64,000 nucleotides of DNA from Dictyostelium discoideum (taxonomy: Eukaryota): positions 768,001 to 832,000 of the forward strand of contig CM000154.2 in assembly GCA_000004695.1 (NCBI GenBank), read 5' to 3'. The translations under genes and the position numbers were made by a program. Positions 1-10,025 of the stretch are shown here, one piece after another. The notes beneath the pieces are model-generated. The model ran no database searches. It was not told the origin of the DNA and was given only the letters and a program-made list of their open reading frames with translations. The number at the start of each line of letters is the position of its first letter. Position 1 is the stretch's first letter.

Positions 1-2093
1 TAAGACATTCCAAATAACTCGCACTTTCTCTTCATAGTATCTTCAATTAATGCCATCAATGTTCTTTCAGTATCTAAATGAATTAAATTTATACTATTTC
101 TCTTTTTAAATAATTGATTTGAAACATCTATAAAATCAATTGATTTATTATATCTAATTGCCTCTGAAATTGCTACTAATCCATCTTTACCAATAAAATT
201 ATATGATAATGAAATATATTTTAATGTTCTAAAAATAAATAAATAAATAAATAAATAAGTAAAATATTATATTAATAATTTAATTAAAATAATTAAAATA
301 AAATTTTAAATTTTTATTAATACATACTTATTATATTTTAAAGCTTCTGCAATTAATTTTGTACCATTATCAGAGATTTGATTAACATTTAAATTTAAAA
401 GTGTTAAAGATTTATTCTCTGTAATTAAAGTTGCAATTGCTGCTGCATCTGAATCCATTAAATTTGGTATGAATGACATTCTTAAATAACCTTCATGACC
501 ATTGATATATAATGATTTCGTATGTGTATTATTATGTAATCCTTGACATATTAATGATAAAGAATTACCATTTAATGGTAAAATTTCTGGAGCTGTATAT
601 TCTTCATCTCCAAATCTATATAATAAAATAAAAATAAATAATTATGTGTGTGTGTGTGTGTGTTAATTATTTATTAATATTAAAAAAAATAAAATAAATA
701 AATAAAAATAAAATTAAAATTAAAATTAACCTACTTAACTCTTGTTCTTTTTTGACAATGATCAGAACTTTCATTTGTATTTTCACCTATTATACAAAGA
801 CTCCAACTTAATTCGGTAAAAGTGGGATCATTAGAAGAAACTCTTTCTACAATTCTACCCACGACTTCAGCGTTGGTTCTAGCATTTGAATGTTTTGCAA
901 TGTTTTTAGTAGTTTGAGAAACTTGAATTGGTAGTTTAAGATAATCACAATCTTCAACCAACTTTTGAAGTGACCAAAATCTATCAGTCGTCGAATTTTG
1001 TTTTAATGAATAACCTGGGCATAATCCATAAATTAAATTATGCCCAATTTCATTACCATTTTTCATCCATGACATTGCATAACTACCTGCTTGTGAACTT
1101 GGTCTAATTAAAAATGATCCCTAATAATTTTTAAAAAAAAAAATAATAAATAAAAAAAATATAAAAAAAAAAATTAATATATATAATAAATTGAATGATT
1201 GAATGATTGAATGATTGGATGAGTAAAAGATTGAAAGAGAGTAAAGTAAAACTTACAGTTGGTTTATTATTTAATAAAGTGATTGCAACATCTCTAGTTG
1301 CTTCCTTATGAAACCAAGGTTGATCTAAATCTTCTGATTTCATATTAAAATCAACCCTACCTAATCCATGATTATTAAATGTTAACTTATTATTTAAATA
1401 TACTTTTGCCATTGAATAGTTATCTTCTTGTTTGGTTCCTATTATTATTTTTATTATTATTTTTGTTTTTTTTTTTTTTTTCCACACATTTAAAAAAAAA
1501 AAAAAAAAGTAAGTAAAATAGGAAAATAATAAAAAATAAAAAAATAAAAACTAACAAAATCATTAATTTATATAAGCCAATGTCACCAAACCCTCAATCT
1601 ATTCAATGTTTCAACTAATGATATTATAATCTTTCAAATATATCACATCAATCAATTTGATCAAATTATTTATTTTATTTATTTATTTATTTTACATACT
1701 TGCAACTAAATCACTATTCCCAAAACCATTCATATGACCATGATGATTATGTGTGAAATGTTGAGTTCCATTAAAGAATGATAAACTTGAACCTGTACTG
1801 TTATGTAGAGGATTGAAAAAAGTTGAAGAAGATGGTGACCCAACAAAATTGTGAGTAGATGGAGTTGATGTTGATAAAATATTATGATTACGACTATTAT
1901 TATTATTTTGGTGGTGGTTGTTGTTATTACTATTATTACTATTACTATTATTACTATTACTATTAATACTATTACTATTATTACTATTATTACTATTATT
2001 ATTACTAAGTGAAATATTAGTAATGGTTAATGTGTCAATTGATAATGTCACATTACCATTACTACTATTTTTGATATCGTTTTTTGATTCCAT
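1..2093 (-). CDS. SH2-domain and leucine-rich-repeat protein (LrrB-like), partial, 3' end beyond window. Exons (minus strand): 1700..2093, 1257..1438, 735..1120, 328..615, <1..228.
   Basis: Spliced translation gives ...WFHKEATRDVAITLLNNKPT|GSFLIRPSSQAGSYAMSWMKNGNEIGHNLIYGL..., a canonical SH2 core (W[FY]H..., GSFLIR, Y-x-S/M). The downstream exons read ...LTLLNLNVNQISDNGTKLIAEALKYNKTLKYISLSYNFIGKDGLVAISEAIRYNKSIDF..., RNI-type LRRs. Donors are GTATGT, GTAAGT and GTAGGT, all acceptors AG, and intron phases are consistent. The N-terminus is Asn/Ser-rich low complexity. Confidence 0.75.
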
Positions 2094-2261
2094 GTTTAAA
2101 TTTGTATATTTATATATAATTAAAATAAAATTTTTTTTGATTTTATTTGTTTTGGTGGATACTATATCATAATAAAGAGTGTGTGTGTGTGTGTGTGTAA
2201 ATGCGTGTTTTTGGGAAAAAGAGAAGAGAGAAAAGAAAAAGAGAAGAGAGAAAAGAAAAAG

Positions 2262-2292
<31 letters not shown>

Positions 2293-2690
2293 TGTATGAA
2301 AATTTTATGAAAGAATAAAGTGATTATTTTGTATTTTTGTTTCTTTTTTTTATTTTTATTTTTATTATTTTTTAGATGATGTCTAAATATTTGCAGAAAA
2401 TTTTTAAAAAAAATAAAAAAAATAATAAAATAATAAAAAAAAAAAACAATAGTGAGGGTGTGAGAAATTTTTTAGAATGAACCACAAATAAATTTAAATT
2501 AAAAACACAAAATGACCTAATTTTAATTATTTATTTAAAAAAAAAAAAAAAAAAAAAAATTAAAAAAAAAAAAAATAAAATAAATAAAAAAATAAAATTA
2601 AAAAAACTATAAAAAAAAAAAAATTAAAAAAAATTAAAAAAAAAAAAATAAAAAAGAAAAATCGTTTTTTTTGATTATTTTTAAAAATTT

Positions 2691-2724
<34 letters not shown>

Positions 2725-3062
2725 GTTAAAGGTTTTAAGAAAAAATGGAAATTTCTTAAAAAAGAAATTTTAAAAAATTTCTTTTCAAATTAAAAAAAAA
2801 TAATTAATTGGTATTAAGTGGTCAAGAAACCTCCAAAAAATTTTTAATTTTTTTTTTTTTTTTTTAACCCCCCCACCCCGGTCAAAAAAACTTTAAAAAA
2901 AAAAAGGCCGATTGGGGGAAAATATTTTTAAAATTTTTTAAAAAAATTAAAAAAAAATCCACCAAAAAATTTTTTTTTTTTTTTTTTTTTTCCCAAAATT
3001 AAATTAAATTAAATTAAATTAAATTATTAAAATTAATTAAAAAAAAAAAAAAATTTATTTCC

Positions 3063-3098
<36 letters not shown>

Positions 3099-3338
3099 CC
3101 CAAAATATAATTCAATGAAGTTTTTTATTTTTAAAAAAAATTTTTTTTTTTTAATTTAATTTTTTTTTTTTTTGAAAATTTTTTTTTTTTAGCCATCAAA
3201 TTATATTTTGAAAATATCTGGTTTTTCAAAAAAAAAAAAGTGTTGATTTTTTAATTTTTTAATTTTTTTTTTTTTTTTTTTTTTTTTTTCATCAATCCCA
3301 TTTGTAACATTAATATATACATATAAAAAAAATAAACC

Positions 3339-4816
<1,478 letters not shown>

Positions 4817-4979
4817 TAATAATAATAATCATCATCAATAATAATAAACAATAATTACATTATGTTATCCCTCAATAAATATATATATAAAATAAAATTT
4901 AAAATAAATAATTTGTTATACTAGAAATTATTTTTTTATTTTTATTTTATTATTTTTTTTAATACTATTATTATTATTA

Positions 4980-5415
4980 TTATTTCTTTCTAACTAATTC
5001 ATTTAAACTTCTTTCTGTATCTGTAATTTGTGCATCAATATATTTACTTTGATTCTATATATGTGTGTGGTGTGGGGTATTGGTTAGTATAATAATTAAT
5101 TTAAAAATAGTATATATATTTATATATATATTAATAACATACAATTAAACCTTTAACATCTTCTTCATCTTTTTGAACTTGTTGTTTTAATTCAGTTTTT
5201 AAAGAGGTCATTGGTGAGATAACAAACATTTTACCAACTGCTTTATAGGTTTTAGTTTCTGATGATAATGATTCTAATTCATTGATTGTAATTAAACATT
5301 TCTTTCTATCATTTTCTGCAATTTGAATACGTTGTTTGATTATATTTAAACTTCTACTTAATGTATATAGTTTTTCACGTGTTTCAAAAAATGCTTGTTT
5401 ATCTAAAATTTCCAT
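4980..5415 (-). CDS. pfdn1: Prefoldin subunit 1 (beta-type). Exons 5143..5415 and 4980..5054.
   Basis: MEILDKQAFFETREKLYTLSRSLNIIKQRIQIAENDRKKCLITINELESLSSETKTYKAVGKMFVISPMTSLKTELKQQVQKDEEDVKGLI|NQSKYIDAQITDTERSLNELVRKK. The coiled-coil/beta-hairpin layout and the KAVGKMFV motif are typical of PFDN1. Donor GTATGT in phase 0, acceptor TATATAG, 88-nt intron. Confidence 0.85.
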
Positions 5416-5610
5416 TATATATTATATTGTTGGTTTTTTTTTATTTTTTATTTTTGATGAAAACAAATTTTAATATCCCAATAGGTGAAAAAAAAAAAAA
5501 AAAAAAATCAAAAAAAGTGAAAAATTTCATTAAAAAAAAAAAAAAAAAAAAAATAAAATTGAAAATAATAACAAATGCAAAAATCAAATCTAAACAAGGG
5601 GTTTAAAAAT

Positions 5611-5650
<40 letters not shown>

Positions 5651-5674
5651 AAATAATATTATTTACAATTAAAT

Positions 5675-6479
5675 TTATTTATTTTCTTTTACTTTTCCTT
5701 TTTTTGGAATTAATTTTTTACTACTGGTTTTCTTCTTTTCTCTTTTCTTTGAATTATTGTCAGACATTTCTTTTAATAGAGTTGAAGCTGGACCAGCAAA
5801 TCCTTGTTGTTCAGTTAAAGATTCTAATAAATTTTTTACAAGATTTAAATTTAAATCAACTTTTTGATTTACTTTATAATTTTCATTATCATCTTCATCA
5901 ACATCTTTGTCATTATTATTAATATTATTATTATTATTATTATTACTTTTTTCAATATCATCAAATTCTTTTGGTAATTTGGTTGACTCCAATTCAAAAG
6001 AAGAAGCAATAATCTTTAAATTTAATTCTTGATCCATTCTTTCCATGTATTGTTTTATGGTTGATTTCTTTAAAAATTCAACATATTGGAATTCTTTTTC
6101 ATCATCATCATCTTCATCTTCATCTTCATATTCTTCAAAACCATCATCTTCATCATCTTCATCATTTTCATCATCTTCATCATCATCTTTGTCATCACTA
6201 TCTTCATAATTATCAATATCTTGGTACATATCATCATCATCGTCATCATCGTCGTCATAATCATCATCATATTTGTTATTATCAGTAAAACCCTTTAGTA
6301 TATCCATGAATTTATTTGAATCAAATGAAATATTATCATCACCACCATTACCATAAGCACTACTTTTAGTTTTATTTTTAGAATTTCCAGATTTTTCGTT
6401 AAATTCTACACCATCAAATGAGGATAGTTGAGAAAGCATTGATTTGAATTGATTCGAAAAATCATTTATTAAATTTGAA

Positions 6480-6565
<86 letters not shown>

Positions 6566-6595
6566 TTCTTTAACTTCTTTTTTACCTTCTTTATT

Positions 6596-6628
<33 letters not shown>

Positions 6629-8026
6629 CTGTTGTTGTTTTTGACGATCATTTTCAAATTCTGTAATTAAATCTTCAAATTTATCAGGATTCTCTTCATT
6701 TAACCAATCATCCTCTGATTCAATTTTACTTTTATCAGATTCTTGTAAAATTTTTATCATTTCATCAACTGATTTTGAATTTGTAACTTGATCAATTAAT
6801 TTATAAATTGATTCTTCTTCTTTATTATTATTATTATTATTATTATTAATATTATTTTTTAAATATTGATTTTTAGCAATTAATAATTTCTCTTTATATA
6901 ATTTTGAACCAATAGTTTCATCATTGAAATAATTATTTGATTTTAATTGTTTTAAATAGTTTAACCAATTCAAATCATCATTGAATCTATGATATGAGGA
7001 TACAGAATTCCTTTTGGATCTATTATAAACCATCTCTAAACCACAAATGATTTTAACACCTAATGATCTTGAATCGTAGGTTGGATGTGAGGGTTTTGGT
7101 AATTGTGGATGAAAATTCTTTGGACTATTCCATTGTTGAAGTTTTAACATTGCATAAAGACAACGAGTGAATCTAATATTGGTTGTTATCAATTGACCTG
7201 AATTACCAAACGAGTCTCTTTCTCTACTCATTGGAAATCTTTTCATTGTGCTAATGGTTTTCATATCATCTGAATCTCTATTATAAAATGTTGTTGTTAT
7301 ATCTGATATTAATTGTGGATATTGATTTAATAAATATCCAATCTCAATTGGTATCGCTGCTAATTTTATTTGATTTTGATCTTTTAAAAAATATTCACCA
7401 TTATAAAATCTAAAAAATGAAAAAATAAAATTAATAAATCTATAAATATATATATATCTAAAATGAAAATGAAAATTAAAATAAAAATAAAATTACCTTT
7501 TTAATCTATTTTTTAAAATTTCATTAATTTCATTTGAAACTTTTGTAATAATATTATTTGAAGATGATGATAATATTGATAAAGCAGTATTTGTATCCAT
7601 TTTATAAGGAATTGTATCTAATTGAGAAGGATCCGAAGGTAATGGTATTATATGAATTTCACCATTTTTTAAGTAAACTCTATTATTAGAATTTGTAGGT
7701 TTTATCCATTTTGGTAATGCTTGAGCAGTTTCAATTAATATAAATTCACCATCATTGTCTTTAATTGAAACAATTAATGATTGAAACTTTTTTGTTAATT
7801 CTAATAAAATATAAACTATAAACCATTCATCATCAATTGATTCTTCAAATTTAGTATTTCCATAAAAATGAATTGGTAGTTGTTGTTGTTGCTGTTGTTT
7901 CTTTTTATGGTCATAAATTTTTAAATTAAATGGTTCTTTTTGCCAAATATAATCTTTAATATAATTTAAAATTAAATATTCTTTAATTTCATTTAATTTA
8001 TTTGTTATAGTGGTATTTTCGTTATT

Positions 8027-8057
<31 letters not shown>

Positions 8058-8221
8058 TTATTATTATTATAATTTATTAAATGAGTGTCAAATATTCTAT
8101 ATTTTACAAAATTAATTTCTTCTTTATGTTTATTATTTAAAATATCATCACCATTATTATAAAAGTCTTCGAAATTATCAACAAACTGTGGAACCGCTCC
8201 ACTATTTTTAGCTTTGTTCAT
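5675..8221 (-). CDS. Ecdysoneless / SGT1-family (ECD) homologue. Exons 7497..8221 and 5675..7419.
   Basis: IWQKEPFNLKIY...FYGNTKFEESIDDEWFIVYILLELTKKFQSLIVSIKDNDGEFILIETAQALPKWIKPTNSNNRVYLKNGEIHIIPLP aligns residue-for-residue with the conserved ECD N-terminal block. FTRCLYAMLKLQQW and the C-terminal LNLVKNLLESLTEQQGFAGPASTLL also match ECD. It has a long D/E acidic tract plus poly-N and poly-Q. The 77-nt intron runs GTAATT...TTTTTTAG in phase 2. The true start is MNKAKNSG at 8221, not the poly-T-derived M of the ORF track. Confidence 0.88.
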
Positions 8222-8457
8222 TGTAATTATTTGAAAAATGAAAATGTGAAAAAAAAAAATAAAAAATAAAAAAAAATAAAAAAAAAAAAATTGAAAAATA
8301 AAATGAAAATTGGAAAGGGGGTACACCATTTAATAAATTTCATTAAAGGAAACCACAAACCCTTTTCCAATTTTTTCTTCATGTTTTAAATTTAATTTTT
8401 TTTAATTTATTGTTTTTTTTTTTTTAAAATGTGTTTTTTATTATTTTTAAAAAAAAA

Positions 8458-8566
8458 ATCATTTGGCAAACACACTTGTTTTAACATTTTCCAAAAAACT
8501 ATTTAAATATATATATTTTTTTTCTAAAAAAAAATATCATTTGACAAACACACTTGTTTTAACATC
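8458..8566 (+). promoter_or_regulatory. Two copies of a 30-nt element, ATCATTTG[G/A]CAAACACACTTGTTTTAACAT, 79 nt apart in the divergent promoter between the ECD homologue and the KAR5/GEX1-like gene.
   Basis: 8458..8487 and 8537..8566 are identical except for one base. Confidence 0.5.
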
Positions 8567-8634
8567 AATAATTTTCAAAATAATTCCATACTCATAATAT
8601 ATAAAATTTTTTTTTTTTTTTTTTTTTTTAATAA

Positions 8635-9986
8635 ATGTTATTTATTTTAAAATTATTATTTTTATTATGTATTATTATTATAAAAATTAATGGAGAATTA
8701 TCAAATTATTATCAATATGAAATTGATAAAAAAATAAATGATAGAATTAATAATGGTAGAGAAAGTTTAGAATCAATTAAAAAGAATTCAATATCAAATA
8801 GATGTTTGGAGGAATGTATGGAAATATTATCAAATGGTTGTAAGGATATGGATGATTTATCAAAGAGTAGATTAGCAGTTAAATTAACCAATTGTCATTT
8901 GGCAAAGAGTGGTCACAAACAGTATCCATGTAGATTTGATATGTCAATACAAGATTGTACATCTAAAATGGATCAAATGGCATTCTCAACCTATACAAAT
9001 TTTTATATATCCACAGAAAATATTTGTTATTATCTATCACAGGAACTATTTCAACAACGTACAGAACAATCAATTAATAATCTTGTTACAAGTACACATA
9101 AAACTCAAACTGTGATTAATATATTACATTCAAAAGCAGATGACATCAATGAACAAGTTGACCTATCATTAAGCAATCAAAAAAAGTTATTACAAAATCA
9201 AAAACAATTAATCGACGATTTAGATAATAGTGCCAACACAATCAATGACATTGGTAAGAAATCCATTGAAATCGAACAATCCATAACTAAACAATCAAGA
9301 CAACAACAACAATTAATCGATTCACATGATCAACTTTCAAAACAATATCATGATCAATCTAAACAATCATTGGAATTAATTAATGAAATTAAACAATCAT
9401 CAGAAACAATGAATCAACAACAAAAACAATCATTAGAAAATCAAAATCATTTAATTCAATTACAATCTCAATCCATTCAATTCATTGAAACCATTGAAAC
9501 CATCACTGATACTTCATTATCAAAATTGAAACAAGTAATAACCTTTCAAGACCAATTATTAGATGGTAATAAAATTATTATTACAATCTTAAATCAATTA
9601 AATTTACTTCAAAATTGGATTTTATCTGAAGTTATTGATTTTAAATCAATTTATTTTTATATTTCAATTTTTTTAATTGTATGTAAATTTTTAAATAAAA
9701 AAAAAAAAAAAAAAAAAAAAAATTATTAACAAAATATTTTAAATTATAATAATAATAAAATGAAAAAAAAAAGATATATTTAATATCATCAACAAAAAGA
9801 ACCAAATCAACAAGAGTACCATTATTAATTGGATTAATTATTGATATTTTTGTTGAAAGATCAATTTGTTCAACAGTTTTATCATCTCCATCAACAACAA
9901 CATCAACATTATTTAATTTATTATCAATTTTATTCAATATTCCAATAATTAAGTTTATAAGGGAAAATTATTTATTATTTACAAAT

Positions 9987-10025
<39 letters not shown>

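Follow-up and report, generated by a model that had tools for sequence, protein, structure and literature searches.

Which gene lies at the edge of this stretch of Dictyostelium discoideum DNA, and is the SH2 domain that it appears to encode intact? The window analyzed here is 64,000 nucleotides long (contig CM000154.2, positions 768,001 to 832,000), and the original prediction had placed in its first 2,093 nucleotides a gene fusing an SH2 domain to leucine-rich repeats (LRRs), either LrrB or a paralogue. We conclude that 1..2093 on the minus strand is almost certainly the 5′ two thirds of D. discoideum lrrB (DDB_G0287823), comprising the start codon, four introns, and codons 1 to 492. Of the two candidates, lrrB itself is indicated by a published primer (LrrB05), by the number of the invariant SH2 arginine (Arg198), by two published motifs, and by the interval of the published gene disruption. 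The locus is an already known, functionally characterized gene that is truncated by the window edge. Since lrrB has already been characterized experimentally, the locus adds no new biology by itself. By-products of the analysis are an exact exon/intron map of the window, a revised end of the LRR domain (about residue 490), an SH2-LRR architecture conserved across Amoebozoa, and a candidate second SH2-like module in which the key arginine is replaced by tyrosine.

The reverse transcription-PCR (RT-PCR) primer LrrB05 published for lrrB (CTATGAAGAGAAAGTGCGAGTTATTTGG; Sugden et al. 2010, PMC2906285) matched the minus strand at 10..37 in 28 of 28 positions with 0 mismatches, and none of 100 shuffles matched. 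The invariant SH2 arginine of LrrB, which was mutated to alanine in the same study, is Arg198 (Sugden et al. 2010, PMC2906285). All GT/AG pairs near frame breaks were enumerated on the reverse complement of 1..2200, leaving four stop-free splice models, one of which had consensus donors throughout. In this consensus-donor model the arginine of FLIRPSS is residue 198. The three other in-frame models placed it at 189, 193, or 194, versus the published 198, and were rejected. The published numbering therefore selects both the splice model and the start codon, and with them the GTATGT donor at 1699. LrrB's N-terminal half contains RVSSNDP and RMSFIP (PMC2906285), and these motifs are found at residues 285 and 366, respectively, of the protein encoded in the window. 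The published lrrB disruption replaced genomic positions 431-1330, SH2 coding sequence included (PMC2906285). Counted from the ATG, these positions correspond to 1663..764, an interval that contains the SH2 codons (1316..953).

The consensus-donor model consists of five exons on the minus strand, starts with an ATG at 2093..2091, and encodes 492 amino acids before it runs open off the window edge. Its donors are GTATGT, GTAAGT, GTAGGT, and GTATGT, and its acceptors are all AG. Exon 1 (1700..2093) encodes residues 1-131, a poly-Asn/Ser/His low-complexity head that follows the start codon. Intron 1 (1439..1699; 261 nt, GTATGT..AG, 15% G+C) uses the sole donor/acceptor pair that gives Arg198. Exon 2 (1257..1438) encodes a linker and the initial portion of the SH2 domain (betaA and alphaA). 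Intron 2 (1121..1256; 136 nt, GTAAGT..AG, phase 0) splits the SH2 core, and exon 3 (735..1120) supplies the remaining SH2 domain (GSFLIR198PSS...) and LRR unit 1. Intron 3 (616..734; 119 nt, GTAGGT..AG) holds a (GT)9 microsatellite at about 645-662. LRR units 2-4 are encoded by exon 4 (328..615), which is followed by intron 4 (229..327; 99 nt, GTATGT..AG, 4% G+C). The partial exon 5 (1..228) encodes LRR units 4-5 and a cap helix (...ERTLMALIEDTMKRKCELFGMS) and continues off-window. Intron 2 also contains an 8-bp tandem repeat (ATTGAATG, 5.8 copies) at 1190-1235.

The exon chain could in principle be a product of chance or a pseudogene, and the SH2-LRR combination an artefact of fitted splice sites, as the splice sites were picked computationally and not from transcripts of this organism. 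We consider this extremely unlikely. The stop probability in the local composition is 0.094 per codon, and open frames of 131, 128, and 96 codons would arise by chance with probabilities of 2e-6, 3e-6, and 7e-5, respectively. The G+C content differs sharply between exons (22-32%) and introns (4-15%), and the Pfam scores of the encoded domains exceed the curated cut-offs. Junctions 2, 3, and 4 are spanned without gaps in alignments to orthologues P0001-P0004, which are 66-75% identical and include those of Synstelium polycarpum and Acytostelium subglobosum. P0001, P0005, and P0006 lie on contigs of 1.6-2.9 kb as uninterrupted, intron-less open reading frames and are therefore transcript-like; intron-less contigs are thus among those that align gap-free over junctions 2-4. 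A chance or decayed reading frame is likewise at odds with the published knockout, rescue, RT-PCR, and tandem affinity purification (TAP)-tag data for the gene (PMC2906285, PMC3085826). The ATG at 2093, the minus-strand exon chain, and the low chance probabilities of its frames bear out the coordinates (1-2093) and strand originally given for the gene.

Some observations weigh against the identification as lrrB and against the details of the gene model. Protein database searches, also when run without the low-complexity head, returned no 100%-identical D. discoideum protein, and the best match was 74%. This missing match is the main residual uncertainty. The identity was drawn from the published primer, residue numbering, and motifs because the protein searches returned only orthologues. 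A search of the window for the reverse primer LrrB08 gave no match, as is expected because about 1.09 kb of the gene lies past the edge; LrrB08 and the 14-3-3 site lie in that part. The putative junction 1 falls in poorly conserved sequence and has the Arg198 numbering as its only support. The exon joins in general rest on splice-site choice, orthologues, and residue numbering, not on D. discoideum transcripts. Finally, the structural model used below is that of an orthologue about 70% identical to the window protein, and its overall confidence is low (mean predicted local distance difference test [pLDDT] score, 54; cap helix, <50).

The lack of a 100%-identical named protein, with a best match of 74%, is what would be seen if the gene were a D. 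discoideum paralogue of lrrB or the orthologue of a closely related Dictyostelium species. Either is very unlikely. The published 28-nt primer matches exactly, and Arg198 is reproduced despite the fast-evolving upstream poly-Asn/Ser head, which varies in length from one orthologue to the next. Both published motifs are also present. Furthermore, 13 SH2 proteins have been counted in D. discoideum, and LrrB is the sole one described with LRRs (PMC2906285). On the primer, Arg198, motif, and alignment evidence, we rejected the paralogue, other-species, and chance reading-frame explanations alike and retain lrrB.

What is published on the organization of LrrB agrees with this assignment. LrrB has an SH2 domain near its N terminus, ribonuclease inhibitor (RNI)-like LRRs, simple repeats, and a C-terminal 14-3-3 site (PMC2906285). 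All features that could be checked in the window (the LrrB05 site, Arg198, the motifs, the domain order, and the position of the SH2 domain within the disruption interval) agree, and no difference was found other than that the window lacks the last ~1.09 kb, with the C-terminal region and its 14-3-3 site. The gene is about 3.18 kb long, and its identifier falls in a range that is probably assigned to chromosome 5. The 492 residues encoded in the window amount to 54.9 kDa. A further 273 residues or so would be needed for the published mass of 85.4 kDa, and the orthologues continue for 294-306 residues beyond the corresponding position.

Is the SH2 domain intact? Pfam SH2 (PF00017) matched residues 173-248 (953..1316 on the minus strand, interrupted by intron 2) with an E value of 1.3e-12 and a score of 48 bits (cut-off, 21), covering profile positions 1-75 of 77. 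Exon 2 ends in ...LLNNKPT (WFHKEATRDVAITLLNNKPT) and exon 3 starts with GSFLIRPSS (GSFLIRPSSQAGSYAMSW); codons 192 and 193 meet at this phase-0 junction. Because intron 2 lies between these two segments, the SH2 core is rebuilt by the exon 2/3 splice, just as had been predicted. The splicing of an AT-rich dictyostelid gene and a split SH2 domain can thus be read from sequence alone, as that earlier reading shows.

The Arg198 codon (AGA, 1103..1105 on the minus strand) was assigned to the phosphotyrosine-binding arginine at SH2 position betaB5 by residue numbering and SH2 alignments. In a HMMER alignment to the solved p85alpha C-terminal SH2 domain (C-SH2), R180 corresponds to the alphaA2 Arg, R198 (FLIRPSS) to the betaB5 Arg (FLVRESS), and H219 (IGHNLIY) to the betaD4 His. 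The domain was also aligned to the Syk and SHP2 SH2 domains of known structure, and in an alignment to the v-Src, p85 N-terminal, Syk, and Grb2 SH2 domains the W, R, G-F-L-R, and G columns are likewise invariant. The betaB5 Arg of this first SH2 domain is invariant in every LrrB-family member whose sequence covers the region. Absence of the Arg/His phosphotyrosine pocket had been set beforehand as the outcome that would speak against an SH2 domain; the pocket is present (R180, R198, and H219). Judged from these alignments, the intact pocket residues are in favor of a functional domain. In the model of orthologue P0002, the SH2 block has pLDDT values of 77-86, and Foldseek matched it to the SH2 domains of p85, Fes, and Csk with template modeling (TM)-target scores of 0.65-0.73 and a root mean square deviation (rmsd) of 2.0-2.6 Å.

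Like the SH2 domains of metazoan proteins (p85alpha C-SH2, Syk, SHP-2, and Grb2-type adaptors), that of LrrB therefore has the SH2 fold and a phosphotyrosine pocket formed by the alphaA2 Arg, betaB5 Arg, and betaD4 His, although identity to the metazoan domains is only about 25-30%. LrrB also shares with metazoan SH2 adaptors an adaptor logic without a catalytic domain. Unlike in those adaptors, its partner module is an RNI/tropomodulin-like LRR domain and not an SH3, PTB, or PH domain. The SH2-LRR combination is not represented among metazoan SH2 proteins (PMC2906285).

The function of the protein is known from published experiments. LrrB is a cytosolic SH2 adaptor (Sugden et al. 2010, PMC2906285; Sugden et al. 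2011, PMC3085826). TAP-tag purifications show that it binds two Clu-domain proteins, CldA and CldB, that the interaction requires the SH2 domain, and that pervanadate strengthens it, as for a phosphotyrosine ligand; the R198A mutation abolishes rescue of the lrrB-null strain (PMC2906285). Binding of 14-3-3 occurs mainly via a C-terminal mode-2 site, RSKLTNP, and is strongest in growth (PMC2906285, PMC3085826). The RSKLTNP sequence is also carried by orthologue P0001. In lrrB-null cells, cinB, abcG10, and ttdA are under-expressed and discoidin I is over-expressed (PMC2906285, PMC3085826). Later in development, the null strain shows phototaxis and thermotaxis defects and stalls in the dark, pstO and pstB cells are aberrant, the basal disc is missing, and ecmB is not induced by DIF-1 (PMC2906285, PMC3085826).

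The LRR domain is encoded by 15..874 on the minus strand (about residues 275-488), a region that contains introns 3 and 4, and it consists of five RNI/tropomodulin-type units and a C-terminal cap helix. Pfam LRR_6 (RNI type) scored 29.7 bits against a cut-off of 23.4, and the precomputed Pfam family for the domain is PF27087 (LRR_TMOD-LMOD). The best PDB sequence matches were to the RNI-like LRRC34, ribonuclease inhibitor, NLRPs, and NOD2, with E values down to 3.6e-20. Orthologue P0002, with 70% identity across an alignment of 350 residues, was used for structure modeling, and the elements were mapped back to the window protein; in that model the pLDDT of the LRR core is 82-90. Five helix-strand units were seen, with strands at residues 295-303, 355-359, 393-395, 421-423, and 449-451. 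The last three units are canonical, with a 28-residue spacing (strands at 393, 421, and 449), and the other two are irregular. Foldseek placed the LRR block closest to the five-repeat LRR of tropomodulin/leiomodin (1io0; TM-target, 0.69) and then to RNI and NLR LRRs.

Like the C-terminal LRR domains of tropomodulin and leiomodin and the RNI-like LRRs of LRRC34 and NLR proteins, the LrrB domain is made up of five units with 28-residue alpha/beta repeats and is capped by a C-terminal helix. Unlike tropomodulin and leiomodin, LrrB lacks actin- or tropomyosin-binding elements, and its LRR domain is fused to SH2 modules. Where does the repeat domain end? Unit 5 is followed by a beta-hairpin and then by the cap helix (residues 469-488; 74..15), after which all orthologues have a low-complexity linker and no further LRRs. 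Alignments and the low-confidence model thus suggest that the LRR block stops near residue 490, closed by the cap helix rather than running past the edge. Both the alignments and the model are drawn on for this boundary because the cap helix itself has a pLDDT below 50. Of the earlier claim that at least five LRRs extend past the window edge, the count of five units stands and the extension does not. The LRR alignments have been said to extend to about residue 700 (PMC2906285), compared with about residue 490 in the orthologue-based reading presented here.

How widely is this architecture shared? Its distribution was surveyed by a profile search of a 1.84-billion-protein library. The matches were dominated by giant multi-LRR proteins, and only single-stretch, full-length matches were counted as family members. 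An SH2-LRR-SH2-like architecture, in which the LRR domain is followed by a second module described below, was found in the dictyostelids Cavenderia fasciculata (P0026, DFA_10731, UniRef100_F4QB86), Synstelium polycarpum, Acytostelium subglobosum, and Heterostelium album. Among other Amoebozoa, it was found in Rhizamoeba saxonica (P0062) and Stenamoeba stenopodia (P0158), and it was also present in several environmental transcripts and in a genomic contig with introns (L006). Rhizamoeba is a tubulinean and Stenamoeba a discosean. As the architecture occurs in these two genera as well as in dictyostelids, it predates dictyostelid multicellularity. In 2010, the SH2-LRR combination was called unique to LrrB (PMC2906285); at the level of Amoebozoa, this no longer holds. 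The original prediction further held that SH2 domains outside Metazoa are largely confined to Amoebozoa, which understates the repertoires found elsewhere. SH2 repertoires outside Amoebozoa are found in filastereans and choanoflagellates. For comparison, 48 SH2 proteins have been counted in Acanthamoeba (PMC4053784).

For two orthologues, the public gene models seem to be disrupted at the intron that interrupts the SH2 core. The Acytostelium subglobosum model P0004 (SAMD00019534_007310) starts at MSWVK, inside the SH2 domain, and therefore no SH2 domain is called in it. The Heterostelium album gene is split into P0010 and P0015 (PPL_09504 and PPL_09505), the first of which goes out of frame just after ...LLDSKPS.

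Does the part of LrrB that lies off-window hold a further domain? Every orthologue examined has a conserved region after the LRR cap, LPYFHGFLTK..AEKRL..GSFLFYLNHY..EIVHKMIHRV, with the general form (Y/F)FHGFL..AEKRL..GSFLFYL..H... A six-sequence profile of this region matched only SH2 domains in PDB (SHP-2 C-SH2, E = 2.5e-7; RasGAP, 3.5e-5; EAT-2, 8.6e-5), and a more divergent nine-sequence profile again matched only SH2 domains (EAT-2, 9e-6). Pfam SH2 scored 21.0 bits on the first sequence, exactly the cut-off, and was found in four of six sequences at a permissive E value of ≤10; DUF7063 scored 23 bits on the module, under its cut-off of 27. A model of the module (mean pLDDT, 52; core, ~65-82) has a beta-alpha-beta-beta-beta order, and Foldseek matched it to SH2 domains only, with an E value of ~2.5e-5 and a TM-target of ~0.6 at a high rmsd. 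The column of the betaB5 Arg (FLFYL) is Tyr in all 14 family members compared (P0001-P0006, P0026, P0059, P0062, P0065, P0103, P0126, P0147, and P0158). The genomic locus L006 also carries the module, at about 2360-2976.

For D. discoideum itself, one frame of the LrrB08 primer reads SIEQDLR, which matches the TLEQDLRD found directly after the module core in P0001. D. discoideum LrrB thus appears to carry the module as well, although seven residues are thin evidence. When metagenomes were scanned for the C-terminal region that lies off-window, no D. discoideum contig was returned, only the contig of P0001 and the distant genomic relatives L006 and L007. The accounts of LrrB compared here (PMC2906285 and PMC3085826) describe one SH2 domain, the LRRs, and the 14-3-3 site and do not mention a second SH2 domain. 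From the profiles and models, we give slightly less than an even chance to the proposal that an Arg-to-Tyr SH2-like module is both real and undescribed, in which case members of the LrrB family would be double-SH2 adaptors.

An SH2 domain without the betaB5 Arg is already known from this organism. Dictyostelium STATb has a functional SH2 domain with Leu replacing the invariant Arg (cited in PMC2906285), and in this respect it is like the second module of the LrrB family. Unlike the LrrB family, in which a canonical SH2 domain and an Arg-less SH2-like module would be joined in one adaptor, STATb has just one SH2 domain and acts as a transcription factor. Should the module prove to be a genuine Arg-less SH2 domain, it could bind a nonphosphorylated ligand or act intramolecularly, and the SH2-LRR-SH2-like architecture would be an ancient amoebozoan invention, older than dictyostelid multicellularity. 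The LRR domain may serve as a second protein-docking surface. With a C-terminal region that would hold both the Arg-less SH2-like module and the 14-3-3 site, LrrB would bridge a phosphotyrosine-marked partner to other effectors.

With 8-32% G+C over 1..3000, the DNA at and around lrrB is typical of a dictyostelid genome. Neither an Rfam family nor a tRNA was detected in 1..10000. An intergenic region of 1.25 kb (2094..3338; 8-20% G+C) is common to lrrB and a divergent EF-hand gene, and the lrrB promoter and 5′ untranslated region (UTR) presumably lie within it. It contains a (GT)n microsatellite at 2179-2198, roughly 90 bp upstream of the lrrB start codon. A 20-bp unit (GAAAAAGAGAAGAGAGAAAA) is repeated in tandem (3.3 copies) at 2215-2280, in the presumed 5′ UTR/promoter. 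At 2700-3000, where the sequence is about 90% A+T, short G/C runs have a "doubled-base" look (e.g., ...aaccccccccaccccggtcaaaaaaac...ggccgattggggg...), which may reflect low-quality assembly or a degenerate repeat.

The divergent gene occupies 3339..4816 on the plus strand (exons 3339-3785 and 3881-4816) and encodes EF-hand pairs (Pfam EF-hand_7, 71 bits). Its N-terminal poly-Asn tract derives from a perfect (AAT)43 array at 3450-3578, and it carries the motif NRIREYSTPEKIF. The product resembles a MICU1-type mitochondrial calcium-uptake protein. Farther along, at 5131-5415, 5675-7264, and 7493-8329 on the minus strand, Pfam identified a prefoldin subunit gene (PF01920, 39 bits) and a two-exon gene of the SGT1/ecdysoneless family (PF07093), with long poly-Asn, poly-Gln, and acidic tracts.

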